64,000 nucleotides of DNA from an uncultured Bacteroidota bacterium (GTDB lineage Bacteria > Bacteroidota > Ignavibacteria > Ignavibacteriales > Ignavibacteriaceae). Location: positions 88,985 through 152,984 of the forward strand of contig CAWAPE010000001.1 in the NCBI GenBank assembly GCA_963783855.1. The letters are read 5' to 3'. The translations under genes were made by a program, and so were the position numbers. How positions within the stretch are numbered: the first letter of the stretch is position 1; every line of letters starts with the position of its first letter. Shown one piece after another: positions 7,297-16,325 of this stretch. The notes beneath the pieces were generated by a model. The model was not told where the DNA came from and did no database searches. It worked only from the letters and a program-made list of their open reading frames with translations.

Positions 7297-8637
7297 ATGT
7301 CCGAGTATACACAAAATCTGGTGGCAAGAGTAAAAATGCAGAATCAAAATGAACCTGAATTCCACCAGGCAGTTGAAGAGGTTGTTGAATCATTAGACTT
7401 AGTTCTGGAAAGACATCCGGAATATAGATCATCAAAAATTTTAGAAAGAATGGTAGAACCTGAAAGAGTAATTATTTTCAGAGTTCCATGGATGGACGAT
7501 CAGGGAGAAATTCACATCAACCGTGGTTACAGAATTGAAATGAACAGCGCAATCGGGCCTTACAAAGGCGGATTAAGATTTCACCCTTCTGTGACTATTG
7601 GAATATTAAAATTTTTAGCATTCGAACAAGTATTTAAAAATAGTTTAACTACTCTGCCTATGGGCGGCGGTAAGGGTGGATCTGATTTTGATCCAAAAGG
7701 AAAAAGTGATAATGAAGTAATGAGATTCTGCCAGAGTTTTATGACTGAATTATTCAGACACATTGGACCTAATACTGACGTTCCTGCCGGCGATATCGGC
7801 GTGGGCGGAAGAGAAATAGGTTATTTGTTTGGTCAGTATAAAAGATTAAGAAACGAATTTACAGGTGTTCTTACCGGTAAAGGATTAAATTGGGGTGGTT
7901 CACTAATCAGACCTGAAGCAACCGGATACGGAGCAGTTTATTTTGCACATGAAATGTTGAAAACAAAAGGACACGATATTGAAGGTAAGACTTTTGCAGT
8001 TTCCGGTTTCGGAAATGTTGCCTGGGGAGCTGTTCAGAAAATTACACAACTCGGCGGAAAAGTTGTTACAATTTCAGGTCCCGATGGTTTTGTTTATGAC
8101 AAAGAAGGAATATCAGGTGAAAAAATAGACTATATGTTAAAGCTTCGTGCAAGCGCTAATGACAGAGTTAAAGATTACGCTGATAAATTTAAGGTCGAGT
8201 TTTTTGAGGGTAAAAAACCATGGGGTGTTAAAGTTGACGTTGCTATGCCCTGCGCCACTCAAAATGAAATTGACGGGAATGATGCAAAAGAACTCGTTAA
8301 AAACGGTTGTATTTGTGTTTGTGAAGGAGCAAATATGCCAACAACTATTGAGGGTTATAAAGTATTCACCGCGTCAAATATTCTTTACGCACCGGGCAAA
8401 GCTTCAAATGCAGGTGGAGTAGCTACTTCAGGACTTGAAATGTCACAGAACAGTATGCGTCTTCCCTGGCCAAGAGAAGAAGTTGACAGAAGATTACACG
8501 AAATAATGAAAAGAATTCATGACACTTGCATCACAACTGCGGAAAAATACGGTACGCCCGGTAACTATGTTAACGGTGCCAACATTGCCGGATTCCTGAA
8601 AGTTGCAGATGCAATGTTGGACCAGGGTCTGGTATAA
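7297..8637 (+). CDS. gdhA: Glutamate dehydrogenase, hexameric GdhA type (copy 1)
   Basis: 446 aa; [54 protein letters not shown]. Confidence 0.95.
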   Translation: [446 protein letters not shown]

Positions 8638-8680
8638 TTTATTTTATTTCAGACAAATTTATTTTATCTTGTTCATTGAA

Positions 8681-8721
8681 AAGCGAAATTTCCTTAGCCG
8701 GTTATTTCGCTTTATTTTTTT
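8681..8721 (+). terminator. Intrinsic terminator after gdhA copy 1
   Basis: AAGCGAAAT (8681-8689) pairs with ATTTCGCTT (8704-8712), followed by a T-run. Confidence 0.7.
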
Positions 8722-13228: not shown

Positions 13229-13322
13229 ATTTATTTATTAAATTAATTATGCTGGGACTGCACAGCTGTTTTATACGTGTAGTTCCCGGCTGAATTTAAT
13301 TCATAATTTTCTGCAGGATAAA

Positions 13323-16300
13323 ATGCCCGATCAAGATGAGTCCATAAAAACAAATTTTGACGATTACTGGGTCGAACACGGTTACGGTACCAGGTTCCAG
13401 GGTTTCCAGAACCTAATGCGTCTGCGCGTCCGTGATATACTCCTCGTATCAAGCCTTTACGATCTTTACCTTTTTGAAGAAGACGGGCGGCTCTATGAAC
13501 TTATCAGGAATGAATACCAGGGACTAAATCTCAGTCACTCTCCCGAACTTACAAGAGTTTCCAGCGGGAAAGATGCGATTGCACTTGCCAAAGAAGAAAA
13601 AAGATTCGACCTGATAATTACAACACTTCACATCGAAGACATGCATCCGATAAATTTTGCTACGATGGTAAAAGAATCAGGATTAAATATTCCTGTAGTT
13701 TTACTTGCCCATGATAATAAAGAATTTAAATATTTGTTACTTAAACCTGAAATTGCCGCGTTCGATAAAATATTTATCTGGCAGGGCGATTTCAGAATCA
13801 TTATAGCAATAGTTAAATATCTCGAAGACAAAATGAACATCGATCACGATAGCAGGATCGTCGGTGTTCAAAACATAATTTTTATTGAAGACAACGTAAA
13901 ATATTATTCTTCTTTCCTTCCTGTAATTTATACAGAGATTTTAAACCAATCACAGAGATTAATTTCCGAGGGAATAAATCTAACACACCGATTTTTAAGA
14001 ATGAGGGCCAGGCCCAAAATATTGCTTTGTACAAACTATGAAGAAGCCTGGGATTATTATCAAAAGTACAAAGACCTTGTACTTGGTGTAATTTCTGATG
14101 TAGATTTCCCAAAAGATGGTGAACAAAATCCAACAGCGGGATTAGAGATTGCAAAAGAAATTAAAAAGGAACATCCTGATATTCCCGTCTTGCTTGCTTC
14201 AAATAATTCCGAATATTCTGACACAGCAAAAGAAATAGGAGCATCTTTCGTATTAAAAGATTCAAGTCTTTTATTTAACGACCTTCGCCAATTTATGGTT
14301 CAGAATTTTAGTTTTGGTGATTTTATTTTTAGAACACCGGAAGGTGTTGAAGTTGGTCGTGCTCATGATCTTAAAACTCTTGAAGAACAATTAAAGGTTG
14401 TTCCTGAAAATAGCCTTAATTATCATGGTGAAAAAAATCACTTTTCAAACTGGCTGAAAGCAAGAACAGAGTTCTGGCTGGCACATCAATTAAGACCTCG
14501 TAAAGTTTCTGATTACAATACAGTTGAAGATCTCAGACAGGATCTAATCAATTCACTTCATAATTACAGAAATCTCAGACAAAGAGGGATAATTGCAGAT
14601 TTTCTTAAAGAATCTTTCGATCCTAACAGCAGCTTTGCACGTATCGGCGGAGGATCACTTGGAGGGAAAGCACGCGGACTTGGTTTCGTAAATACACTTA
14701 TTAATAATTATAATGTCCGTGACCAATTTAAAGGTGTACAAATATCAGTCCCATCTGCGGTAGTGCTGGGCACTAACGTTTTCGATCAGTTCCTTGAGGA
14801 AAACAATCTCAGAAAATTTGCTTTAAGTTGCAATGATGATGAAGAAATTACCCGCCGCTTTTTAGAAGCAGAGAGGTTTCCCGAAGATATTCTTGGCGAG
14901 CTTGCTGCATTCCTGGATATTATTCACTCCCCTCTCGCAGTTCGATCATCCAGTCTGCTCGAAGATTCGCAGTATCACCCATTTGCCGGTGTTTATGAAA
15001 CATATATGATCCCGAATAATCATCCCAATCCGCTTATTAAATTAAATGATCTTCTTAATACGATTAAAAGAGTTTACGCTTCCACCTTTTATCAGGGATC
15101 TAAGAATTATATAAAAGTTACAAACTACCGCCTCGAAGAAGAAAAGATGGCAGTAATAATTCAAAAGATGATCGGGGCAAAACACGATCATAAATTTTAT
15201 CCCGAATTTTCGGGTGTGGCAAAGTCCTTTAATTTTTACCCGATGGCACCACAAAAACCCACAGATGGAATTGTTTCAGTTGCTCTCGGTCTTGGCAAAA
15301 CTGTAGTTGATGGTGGAAACACTGTAAGATTTTGTCCGAAATATCCCACGGATTTAATTCAGTTCTATTCAACAACAGAATCACTCGACAGCAGTCAAAA
15401 AGATTTTTACGCATTAAATCTGGAAGGAAATTCAAACTTTGGCTTTGTTACATACGATATGCTCACAGAAAAATTTGGTTTGAATGTTGCCGAAAAAGAA
15501 GGAACATTAAATTTAATTGGAGCAACATACTCGCCTGAAAATGATTCAATTTCGGATGGCATATCCCGACCGGGAATCAGAATTGTAACATTCGGACCAA
15601 TTCTAAAACATAAACTTTTCCCGCTGCCAGGAATTATTGAACTTCTTCTTGATATGGGAACCTGGGGAATGGGGACCCCTATTGAAATCGAGTTTGCCGT
15701 GAATATGTCAGTAAAAAAAGATGAACCAATTCAATTTGGTTTACTGCAAATGAGGCCGCTGGTAATTAACCGTGAACACGAGGAAATTACAATAGATAAA
15801 TTTGAGCCTGAAAAATTATTATGCTACAGTGAACAGGTTCTGGGTGATGGTATTATGAATAATATTTACGACATCATATATGTTGATTATCATTTATATG
15901 ACAGAGCGAAGAGCAGAGATGTTGCAAAGGAAGTAAGTATGTTTAACAGCCAGTTGATGGATGAGGACAGGCCTTATTTATTGATAGGTGTCGGAAGATG
16001 GGGCTCGCTGGATCCGTGGCTGGGAATTCCGGTAACCTGGGAACAAATTGCCGGCGCCCACACAATCATTGAATCTGGATTTAAAGACTTTGCGGTTGAG
16101 CCTTCACAAGGTTCGCATTTCTTTCAGAATTTAACTTCATTTATGATAGGTTATTTTCACGTAAACAGTCATAAAAACCAGGGGCTGGTTAACTGGGATT
16201 GGTTATTAAAACAGAAGCCGGTTGAATCAAAAGTATTTACTAAACATCTTCGTTTTAAATCACCAATAGTAATTAAAATGAGCGGCTATCAGAATAAAGG

Positions 16301-16325
16301 GGTTATTTATAAACCGGAGGAATAA
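13323..16325 (+). CDS. X-2: paralogue of X-1 (receiver-like + receiver + PPDK_N-type ATP-grasp protein)
   Basis: 1000 aa, collinear with X-1 over its full length. Same motifs: ILLVSS, FDLIITTLHIED, IIFIEDN, VISDVDF, LGGKARGLGF, AVRSSSLLEDS, PFAGVYETYMIPN, GRWGSLDPWLGIPVTW, PSQGSHFFQN. Confidence 0.8.
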   Translation: MPDQDESIKTNFDDYWVEHGYGTRFQGFQNLMRLRVRDILLVSSLYDLYLFEEDGRLYELIRNEYQGLNLSHSPELTRVSSGKDAIALAKEEKRFDLIITTLHIEDMHPINFATMVKESGLNIPVVLLAHDNKEFKYLLLKPEIAAFDKIFIWQGDFRIIIAIVKYLEDKMNIDHDSRIVGVQNIIFIEDNVKYYSSFLPVIYTEILNQSQRLISEGINLTHRFLRMRARPKILLCTNYEEAWDYYQKYKDLVLGVISDVDFPKDGEQNPTAGLEIAKEIKKEHPDIPVLLASNNSEYSDTAKEIGASFVLKDSSLLFNDLRQFMVQNFSFGDFIFRTPEGVEVGRAHDLKTLEEQLKVVPENSLNYHGEKNHFSNWLKARTEFWLAHQLRPRKVSDYNTVEDLRQDLINSLHNYRNLRQRGIIADFLKESFDPNSSFARIGGGSLGGKARGLGFVNTLINNYNVRDQFKGVQISVPSAVVLGTNVFDQFLEENNLRKFALSCNDDEEITRRFLEAERFPEDILGELAAFLDIIHSPLAVRSSSLLEDSQYHPFAGVYETYMIPNNHPNPLIKLNDLLNTIKRVYASTFYQGSKNYIKVTNYRLEEEKMAVIIQKMIGAKHDHKFYPEFSGVAKSFNFYPMAPQKPTDGIVSVALGLGKTVVDGGNTVRFCPKYPTDLIQFYSTTESLDSSQKDFYALNLEGNSNFGFVTYDMLTEKFGLNVAEKEGTLNLIGATYSPENDSISDGISRPGIRIVTFGPILKHKLFPLPGIIELLLDMGTWGMGTPIEIEFAVNMSVKKDEPIQFGLLQMRPLVINREHEEITIDKFEPEKLLCYSEQVLGDGIMNNIYDIIYVDYHLYDRAKSRDVAKEVSMFNSQLMDEDRPYLLIGVGRWGSLDPWLGIPVTWEQIAGAHTIIESGFKDFAVEPSQGSHFFQNLTSFMIGYFHVNSHKNQGLVNWDWLLKQKPVESKVFTKHLRFKSPIVIKMSGYQNKGVIYKPEE

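Follow-up and report, generated by a model that had tools for sequence, protein, structure and literature searches.

Glutamate dehydrogenase genes are paired with a receiver/ATP-grasp protein in more than ten bacterial phyla

An uncultured member of the Ignavibacteriaceae (assembly GCA_963783855.1, contig CAWAPE010000001.1) carries, within the 64,000-nucleotide (nt) stretch that we analyzed (the window, to whose positions all coordinates refer unless a locus is named), two copies of a gene pair in which a gdhA-type glutamate dehydrogenase (GDH) gene is followed by the gene of a large protein that we call X. Analysis of related loci established that this arrangement is one instance of a cross-phylum gene pair and therefore far broader than a local duplication: gdhA and X form a conserved two-gene module in more than 10 phyla. 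The X chain begins with a pseudo-receiver, which is followed by a canonical receiver, a helical linker, an ATP-grasp domain of the PPDK_N type, and, finally, a C-terminal domain. GDH and X are very likely functionally coupled in some way. As the most probable form of this coupling, at roughly 45% by our own estimate, we propose that X is a dedicated, ATP-consuming, receiver-gated post-translational regulator of the neighboring GDH.

The two pairs follow one another on the plus strand (Table 1), and our listing of the open reading frames (ORFs) agrees with the positions that the initial annotation, made from the letters of the window, had given for the four genes. X-1 and X-2 align end to end in BLASTP with 599 identical residues out of 995 (60%; 81% positives), and gdhA-1 and gdhA-2 share 322 of 453 residues (71%). 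The by-eye estimate that two thirds or more of the positions are identical was about right for the GDH pair and slightly high for the X pair. At the DNA level the identities are 70% (GDH) and 66% (X), with just 51% and 45% at third codon positions. Synonymous divergence (dS) amounts to 1.6 for the GDH pair and 2.3 for the X pair, the ratio of nonsynonymous to synonymous divergence (dN/dS) to 0.14 and 0.13, respectively, and the longest DNA word common to both modules measures 26 nt. Since dS is saturated, dN/dS is low, and long common words are absent, we read the two modules as an ancient duplication under purifying selection and not as an assembly repeat; the initial annotation had likewise taken them for an old duplication kept intact. 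Both GDH proteins pass the equivalog threshold of NCBIfam profile NF006929 (758.6 bits for gdhA-1 and 750.7 bits for gdhA-2; cut-off 536), and the product of gdhA-2 aligns end to end with its closest solved structure, 5ijz, an "NADP-specific glutamate dehydrogenase" (E = 6e-172). With both ELFV domains in place, they are predicted to be family-I NADP-type GdhA enzymes, the coenzyme specificity being assigned by profile.

To describe the neighborhood of X in other bacteria we used two samples from a family that comprises 5203 clusters at 50% identity with E < 1e-3, and 1273 clusters with E < 1e-30. The close sample was drawn from one genome per GTDB species; at least 597 species contain an X relative, and we examined the 80 closest, in which X is 44–72% identical to X-1. 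The titles of these records name Ignavibacteria/Bacteroidota, Calditrichia, Zixiibacteriota, Acidobacteriota, Eisenbacteria, Gemmatimonadota, Planctomycetota, Myxococcota (Kofleriaceae), Bdellovibrionota, Fibrobacteraceae, and Actinomycetota. Tabulation of neighbors had been set beforehand as the test on which the proposed linkage could fail, and its outcome was strongly positive: in 61 of the 80 genomes a gdhA-type gene, 66–91% identical to the GDH genes of the window, is found no farther than 10 kb from X. In 49 genomes the two are at most 600 bp apart, with gdhA upstream on the strand of X in 40, downstream in 8, and divergent in 1. By our own rough estimate, as opposed to a computed control, a gene present in one or two copies in a 4-Mb genome would come within a 10-kb distance of a randomly chosen gene in about 1% of cases. 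A flank shorter than 3 kb was found for 10 of the 19 unlinked loci.

When the 1113 ORFs that neighbor X in the close sample were clustered by similarity, the recurrent families were X itself (74 loci) and GDH (55 loci), with the next family reaching 7 loci. Because just X and GDH recur, the conserved unit consists of exactly two genes and does not include a histidine kinase. Among these clustered neighbors there was neither a third conserved gene nor a conserved histidine kinase beside X, and no histidine kinase was found among the ten large window ORFs that we scanned. In one genome, L001 (GCA_037444745), X-1 and gdhA-2 are separated by inserted genes for a PAS/HisKA_3 histidine kinase and a NarL-type response regulator (L001 13059–15165), and a 1499-residue PAS/GAF multidomain protein is encoded upstream of its module; this kinase and the multidomain protein are possible candidates for a cognate kinase in that genome only.

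The distant sample is independent of the close one and consists of metagenome loci seeded with the most distant X subfamily, which is 38–46% identical to X. Here 31 of 80 loci are linked to gdhA, or 17 of 40 where at least 2 kb is available on both sides, mostly with gdhA and X divergent. Among still more remote members (33–41% identity) with usable flanks, three of six adjoin a GDH gene and three do not; a seventh member is left out of this count because its contig is too short. The five-part layout of X is kept down to 33% identity. Taken over all loci, proximity is maintained with gdhA upstream of X on the same strand, downstream and convergent, downstream on the same strand, or divergent. 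Since it outlasts several independent rearrangements, the caveat of the initial annotation that two pairs descending from one adjacency are not independent observations has been answered, and the suggestion that GDH and X work together has survived a cross-phylum neighbor test in which no other neighbor was conserved.

Human-gut Bacteroidales, too, are among the linked loci of the distant sample. In locus L154 (positions 90–8777) the X protein, CDB98986.1 of Bacteroides sp. CAG:443, is encoded between two gdhA-type genes whose products have 445 and 444 residues and which are both oriented against X. The adjacent GDH gene is divergent from X, and genes for an AraC-family regulator and a lipoprotein separate X from the other one. 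WP_118338048.1 of Phocaeicola plebeius falls into one 90% cluster with the X proteins of L162 and L164.

Next we examined the anatomy of X. Pfam returned Response_reg, a weak DUF5752, and PPDK_N for both X-1 and X-2, and an AlphaFold model of X-1 built on 29 diverse homologues (pLDDT 86, pTM 0.74) contains two consecutive (beta-alpha)5 units at its N-terminal end. With the whole model as Foldseek query, the tandem receivers of PleD were the top matches, and the nucleotide-binding domain of pyruvate phosphate dikinase (PPDK) was also returned. The Pfam receiver profile PF00072 detects a different unit in each paralog (X-1, 35.9 bits at residues 58–125; X-2, 43.1 bits at residues 220–308; cut-off 30.2). 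In the first receiver of X-1 two serines stand for the acidic pair, threonine for the phospho-acceptor aspartate, and alanine at the end of beta4, and there is no lysine. Since the acidic pair, Asp, Thr/Ser, and Lys are all replaced, this domain is a pseudo-receiver. The second receiver is canonical by its residues and is predicted to accept a phosphoryl group at Asp251: in alignment A1 Lys304 is invariant, and Glu181, Asp251, and Ser285 are conserved in at least 90% of the sequences. Two distant members of the family, P0236 and P0269, lack the aspartate. The linker gives a weak match to DUF5752 (PF19027) in X-1 (27.2 bits, cut-off 23, and only over profile positions 19–107 of 208), X-2 scores just under this cut-off (22.7 bits), and the X family profile matches OrfY chain 4cso weakly (E = 0.06).

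The ATP-grasp domain of both X proteins is recognized by profile PF01326 over nearly its full length (137.3 bits for X-1, covering profile positions 3–324 of 328, and 121.3 bits for X-2; cut-off 27). Residues Gly439, Gly440, Lys441, Arg443, Arg533, Ser534, Ser535, Glu539, Asp540, Glu599, Gln606, Gln802, and Arg804 are invariant in alignment A1. The best PDB sequence match of the X family profile is the ATP-grasp domain of rifampin phosphotransferase (E = 1e-11, residues 465–611), with the RSS..ED..FAG block aligned; we take the remaining motifs to be the counterparts of those PPDK residues that bind nucleotide and metal. Judged by this conservation of motifs, the ATP-grasp domain of X appears catalytically intact. 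Profiles of complete enzymes of the rifampin phosphotransferase and PigC/RedH type score far below their cut-offs (NF041857, 31 bits versus 999; NF052631, 70.6 bits versus 1300).

The C-terminal domain of about 170 residues has no detectable relative in the PDB. Modeled alone (residues 818–993) it reached a pLDDT of 93, and Foldseek against the PDB returned nothing beyond E = 0.03 or a TM score of 0.29; the C-terminal 167 residues gave no Pfam match at E values up to 10. In alignment A1 Gly884, Arg885, Gly894, Pro896, Glu910, and Gly923 are invariant and His925 is at least 90% conserved, its equivalent being invariant in alignment A3. In the X-1 model this histidine sits at the N-terminus of a helix formed by residues 925–932. 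From the order of its motifs (LGNG..., ...IVE..., PSQGSHFFQN, ...DGR..G.I.KP) the domain had been suspected to be a diverged swivel domain of phosphoenolpyruvate (PEP)-utilizing enzymes. This candidate was dropped, since neither Pfam nor the fold of the confident model gave a match: the phospho-histidine swivel domain PF00391 was absent from the full X proteins and from the C-terminal 167 residues at E values up to 10, and the C-terminal model matched no dikinase or enzyme I structure in the PDB. Because the swivel domain is matched by neither sequence nor fold, a phospho-carrier role for His925 would be an analogy only. X-1 and X-2 also lack a Pfam match to the PEP/pyruvate-binding TIM barrel PF02896. 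The label "dikinase-like", under which X was first described, was consequently overstated; it holds for the ATP-grasp domain, which X has in common with dikinases, and fails for the swivel and PEP/pyruvate domains, which are absent.

The ATP-grasp and C-terminal domains also occur together as a cassette without receivers. In two distant loci, L087 and L093, such a cassette is encoded by a second gene beside X (Table 1), with 28–29% identity to X over residues 432–940 and with GRWGS and G[ST]HFFQ kept. Since the cassette recurs without receivers, we conclude that its two domains act as one functional unit. The cassette product of L093 is 1105 residues long and also matches nucleotidyltransferase families (NTP_transf_2 and, weakly, Polbeta). 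Two other members of the family, P0181 (1557 residues) and P0206 (1524 residues), are X proteins with an N-terminal extension of 550–590 residues, made of four unannotated repeats of about 130 residues with the motif ...WQYPEY..ARI.YDG.EY....F.ET.W...; Pfam gave no match for the extension, and the repeat is possibly a sensor domain. An apparent 1321-residue X–GDH fusion ORF in L081 was recognized as an out-of-frame ORF-calling artefact of a GC-rich contig.

Table 1. Genes, domains, and hairpins of the two gdhA–X modules, with the receiver-free cassette genes of two other loci
Feature	Position	Strand	Description
gdhA-1	7297..8637	+	Predicted family-I hexameric NADP-type glutamate dehydrogenase, 446 aa; Pfam PF02812 + PF00208
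Hairpin + U-run after gdhA-1	8680..8721	+	AAAGCGAAAU...AUUUCGCUUU; spacer folds at -25.1 kcal/mol, z = -3.2 vs shuffles
X-1	8772..11753	+	993 aa from ATG; alternative TTG opening at 8742
X-1 pseudo-receiver	8853..9287	+	aa ~28-172; (beta-alpha)5; PF00072 match aa 58-125; from model secondary structure and alignment A1
X-1 canonical receiver	9291..9731	+	aa ~174-320; E181-D182, D251 (beta3 end), S285 (beta4 end), K304 (after beta5)
X-1 linker	9732..10061	+	aa ~321-430; two short strands, then helical bundle; weak DUF5752; W369 invariant
X-1 ATP-grasp	10062..11234	+	aa ~431-821; PPDK_N type; motifs GGK, RSSS..ED, EEEKMAVIIQ, EIEFA, LQ.RP conserved
X-1 C-terminal domain	11235..11750	+	aa ~822-993, ~170 residues; motifs GRWGS.DP.LGIPV, PSQGSHFFQN (His925)
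gdhA-2	11867..13228	+	Predicted family-I hexameric NADP-type glutamate dehydrogenase, 453 aa, ATG; ORF opens at TTG 11804
Hairpin after gdhA-2	13251..13290	+	Spacer folds at -23.7 kcal/mol, z = -3.2; U-tail poorer than after gdhA-1
X-2	13323..16325	+	1000 aa; X-1 paralogue, five-domain layout as in X-1
Zinc-ribbon ORF	16327..16536	+	69 aa, CxxC...CxxC; starts one base past X-2 stop; weak Zn-ribbon Pfam matches
gdh-3	16541..17788	+	415 aa, shorter archaeal/Bacillus-like GDH type; Pfam; NF040817 562 bits, under cut-off 750
gdh-4	17833..19276	-	Fourth ELFV-family dehydrogenase gene; split by one-base frameshift (extra base) near 18978
Cassette genes	L093 7835-11152; L087 10930-13233		Order gdh-X then cassette gene, 8-base overlap with X stop

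Other Ignavibacteria-like genomes retain the full array of gdhA-1, X-1, gdhA-2, X-2, zinc-ribbon ORF, and gdh-3, with X identities of 71–85%, L001 with its inserted kinase and regulator being one of them, and X-2 has orthologues there that are distinct from those of X-1. X-1-type genes always accompany gdhA-1-type genes and X-2-type genes always accompany gdhA-2-type genes, both in these genomes and in the Bdellovibrionota record L023, where the pair is divergent. The small ORF and the third GDH gene that had been noted after X-2 are real. The zinc-ribbon ORF follows X-2-type genes directly in 15 other loci (46–80% identity), including L028 (Calditrichaceae) and L039 (Acidobacteria), usually with gdh-3 next in line, and the small protein that it encodes is probably genuine and part of the X-2 module; gdh-3 comes after X-2 and the zinc-ribbon ORF in many loci. 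With the zinc-ribbon ORF, and with or without gdh-3, the X-2 type is found outside Ignavibacteria in L028, L031, L039, and L059, and it appears to be the more widespread form.

To analyze the descent of the two modules we used distance-based four-point quartets with bootstrapping, in which the X set was compared with Acidobacteriota and with more distant loci labeled Gemmatimonadota, Eisenbacteria, Planctomycetota, and others. X-1 and X-2 were sisters in 100% of the quartets and in 100 of 100 bootstraps, whereas gdhA-1 and gdhA-2 were sisters in just 17–32% of the quartets and in 8 of 100 bootstraps. The distance from gdhA-2 to GDHs of other phyla is 0.20–0.33, compared with 0.35 to gdhA-1, and the GDHs of L051, L072, and L085, all outside Ignavibacteria, are as near to gdhA-1 as gdhA-2 is. 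The tandem co-duplication of a two-gene module, as originally proposed, is thus established for X and not recovered for GDH, for which two readings fit: gdhA-1 has evolved faster, or another lineage has been recruited. The latter would mean that only X was duplicated in place and that gdhA-1 represents an older GDH lineage, either recruited beside the new X or brought in by transfer in place of a copy. We give this somewhat less than even odds. The contrast between the X and GDH bootstraps and the position of gdhA-2 nearer to foreign GDHs speak for it; on the other hand, the GDH distances are small and come from distance methods only, gdhA-1 lies on a long branch that acceleration after a true co-duplication could equally produce, and the order gdh–X–gdh–X is what a single tandem duplication is expected to leave. 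The GDH tree is nearly star-like, and with distance methods it fits both readings. In this genome the X gene has been duplicated, and each paralog now stands behind a GdhA of a separate type; the zinc-ribbon protein and a third GDH belong to the X-2 module in addition. In the metagenome loci L098, L103, and L105 two X genes stand in direct tandem (for example, L103 5044–7941 and 8019–10931). Because of these tandem pairs, we conclude that X has been duplicated more than once in different lineages.

The spacers between gdhA and X share a structural feature. The hairpin with a T-run that had been described after gdhA-1 is real and looks like a terminator or attenuator (Table 1). The accompanying statement that no convincing terminator follows gdhA-2 was not wholly accurate, in that a comparably stable hairpin, with a poorer U-tail, is present there. 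Folding against shuffled sequences revealed no significant structure in the spacer between X-1 and gdhA-2, and no Rfam family matched the region. We then surveyed 38 same-strand gdhA-to-X spacers of other genomes for their best 44-nt hairpin. Its energy averages -23.2 kcal/mol, as compared with -15.1 kcal/mol in shuffles, and is at least 5 kcal/mol better than that of the shuffles in 31 of 38 spacers (Wilcoxon p = 2e-7). The hairpin usually starts 6–30 nt past the gdhA stop codon and is followed by a T-rich tail in 15 of 38. A stable hairpin directly 3' of gdhA could hold the expression of X under that of the enzyme, and from its conservation we infer that it may let gdhA be expressed well above X, either by partial termination or by stabilization of the 3' end.

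Several known systems resemble X in part. Like X, PleD-type regulators have two tandem CheY-like domains, one full and one degenerate, N-terminal to an enzymatic module; unlike in PleD, the pseudo-receiver of X comes first, the output is the ATP-grasp/C-terminal cassette instead of GGDEF, and no cognate kinase is conserved nearby. PEP synthase, PPDK, rifampin phosphotransferase, and PigC have the PPDK_N ATP-grasp domain and its nucleotide-binding motifs in common with X, and the histidine that follows this domain at a helix N-terminus recalls the catalytic histidine of the swivel domain in PPDK and enzyme I. Unlike these phosphotransferases, X has receivers, and it lacks the PF00391 swivel domain as well as the PEP/pyruvate barrel and any domain that would bind rifampin. 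Dedicated covalent modifiers of central enzymes are GlnE for glutamine synthetase, AceK for isocitrate dehydrogenase, and PDRP/PSRP for PPDK and PEP synthase. GlnE, AceK, and PDRP are, like the proposed function of X, ATP-using proteins that switch one central enzyme, and some of them (for example, aceK) are encoded near their target; the second X-like gene of L093, with its nucleotidyltransferase domain (PF01909) beside GDH and X, recalls the chemistry of GlnE and GlnD. X is not homologous to any of these modifiers, they do not have its two-component receiver input, and modification of GDH by X is only proposed. The combination of REC and PPDK domains, the architecture of X, has already been noted in a census of response regulators (Galperin et al. 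2018, PMC5847659), where the entry mentions it as a domain combination only, without function, partner, or neighborhood. Our literature searches (DUF5752, PF01326 with GDH, receiver with PPDK_N, and related combinations) retrieved no description of the gdhA–X pairing, in agreement with the earlier statement that no GDH partner of such architecture has been characterized. The tandem receivers and the dikinase-type ATP-grasp domain are known parts; with them come a C-terminal domain that has no detectable relative in the PDB and a specific partnership with a central enzyme.

One genetic observation may bear on the function of X. According to the title of a study by Baggio and Morrison (1996, J Bacteriol 178:7212), the activity of GdhA from Bacteroides thetaiotaomicron depends on one or more nearby trans-acting genes. 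This trans-acting factor may be X, which we regard as a lead and not as evidence. To our knowledge, the factor behind the 1996 observation has not been identified. Reportedly, GdhA was active in E. coli only when a downstream fragment of about 3 kb was supplied in trans, while transcription was unaffected; a fragment of this size would correspond to one X gene. The B. thetaiotaomicron orthologue of X was not reached by our searches: representative cluster look-ups gave only names from Myxococcota, Bdellovibrionales, and Oligoflexia, a homologue search from P0198 led to Sphaerochaetaceae, and a search from the X of Bacteroides sp. CAG:443 returned only matches with at least 99% identity. The sole B. 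thetaiotaomicron locus tag found in papers, BT1971, is a catalase.

How might X act on GDH? In the regulatory mechanism that we propose, a kinase encoded elsewhere would feed a phosphorelay signal into X at Asp251 and so gate the ATP-grasp/C-terminal cassette, and the cassette would spend ATP on modifying or remodeling the GDH hexamer, whose activity would thereby be switched. The likeliest route would be phosphotransfer, possibly by way of His925. In its most specific version, in which a phosphoryl group would pass from ATP to His925 and on to GDH under the license of Asp251 phosphorylation, this proposal is speculative and rather unlikely to hold in full; it borrows its logic from dikinases and from GlnE, AceK, and PDRP and is not supported by homology. 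Equally doubtful, if attractive, is the wider idea that X founds a widespread class of enzyme switches driven by ATP and gated by two-component signaling, with His925 as carrier in a domain not described before, and that X is at the same time the trans-acting factor of Bacteroides GdhA.

A number of observations weigh against regulation of GDH by X. The case for a physical or catalytic interaction between the two proteins is indirect. No gdhA lies near X in nine well-flanked loci of the close sample and in roughly half of the distant subfamily, which means either that the linkage is dispensable or that X has other targets. Pairing within Ignavibacteria could be inherited synteny, and the mirror-tree correlation between X and GDH is modest (r = 0.43, not corrected for the species tree). 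We found no Rosetta-stone fusion of X with GDH, and the long X members carry sensor-like repeats instead. The C-terminal domain matches the swivel domain by neither sequence nor fold, which leaves the carrier role of His925 to analogy only. Finally, the Bacteroidales loci that we saw have X divergent from the adjacent gdhA and not downstream of it.

Among the other functions that X could have, the one that fares best is that of a metabolic enzyme. Its cassette would act by phosphorylation or ligation on a small molecule from the metabolism of glutamate or 2-oxoglutarate, GDH would provide or consume this metabolite, and the receiver would tune the flux. The characterized PPDK_N enzymes (PEP synthase, PPDK, rifampin phosphotransferase, and PigC/RedH) act on small molecules, such enzymes are the best NCBIfam and PDB matches of X, and the ATP-grasp motifs are intact. 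Neighboring bacterial genes often encode consecutive steps of a pathway, and absence of gdhA near about half of the distant X members is what a protein with chemistry of its own would lead one to expect. Nevertheless, no small-molecule-binding domain comparable to the PEP/pyruvate barrel or to the domain that binds rifampin is recognizable in X, a third gene of a pathway is not conserved beside the pair, and two diverged X copies, each with its own GDH type, are not obviously needed for one metabolite. For these three reasons, none of which is conclusive, we favor direct action on the GDH protein over a common metabolism. The tandem-receiver front end is, moreover, typical of regulators, and we consider it unlikely that X is such an enzyme.

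Still less probable is that X is a signaling protein with targets other than GDH, held beside gdhA by common transcriptional control, for example in a nitrogen-regulated locus. X is an orphan response regulator without a conserved kinase neighbor, some of its members have large sensor-like N-terminal repeats, and the divergent gdhA–X order of Bacteroidales-like loci would suit a common regulatory region. But co-regulation alone rarely holds one gene pair together across more than 10 phyla and several rearrangements with all other neighbors exchanged, Pfam detects no DNA-binding domain in X, and the hairpin after gdhA speaks for an enzyme and a partner that are expressed together but at graded levels. 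That X is simply a PEP synthase or PPDK whose pairing with GDH is incidental, as database names such as "phosphoenolpyruvate synthase" and [quoted passage not shown] would suggest, is already refuted as judged by domain content, because the swivel and PEP-binding domains (PF00391 and PF02896) are absent and just the ATP-grasp domain is present, the PEP synthase profiles score far under their cut-offs (TIGR01418, 57 bits versus 740; NF005057, 50 bits versus 598), and the linkage with gdhA is far too frequent for chance; annotations of X proteins as "phosphoenolpyruvate synthase" are corrected accordingly.

Downstream of the X-2 module lies gdh-4, which is about 40% identical to gdh-3 and consists of an N-terminal ORF of 102 codons with its continuation in the next frame; it is either a pseudogene or the result of a sequencing error. 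Stretches homologous to gdh-4 adjoin the module in L016, L017, and L022. The surrounding window genes (2972–6989 and 19387–33005) belong to amino acid and peptide catabolism. They include an ornithine carbamoyltransferase and a carbamate-kinase-like gene (2972–4866), a Leu/Phe-tRNA protein transferase and an M24 peptidase (also within 2972–6989), a protein weakly similar to aminopeptidase N (19387–21021), an APC-family amino acid permease (21730–23826), and an M13 peptidase (30960–33005). This neighborhood is consistent with a role of GDH in amino acid catabolism besides assimilation in this organism.

Glutamate dehydrogenase stands at the junction of carbon and nitrogen metabolism, and we know of no dedicated post-translational regulator of the family-I enzyme in most bacteria. 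With X encoded beside gdhA in more than 10 phyla, from soil Acidobacteriota to gut Bacteroides and Phocaeicola, a clonable candidate for the control of GDH is now at hand. It represents a large uncharacterized family (the 1273 clusters mentioned above) in which a cassette joins a dikinase-type ATP-grasp domain to a domain without a detectable relative in the PDB, and it may explain the genetic observation made in B. thetaiotaomicron in 1996. If X does regulate its neighbor, GDH activity would be tied to two-component signaling, and ammonium assimilation or glutamate catabolism would be switched post-translationally.

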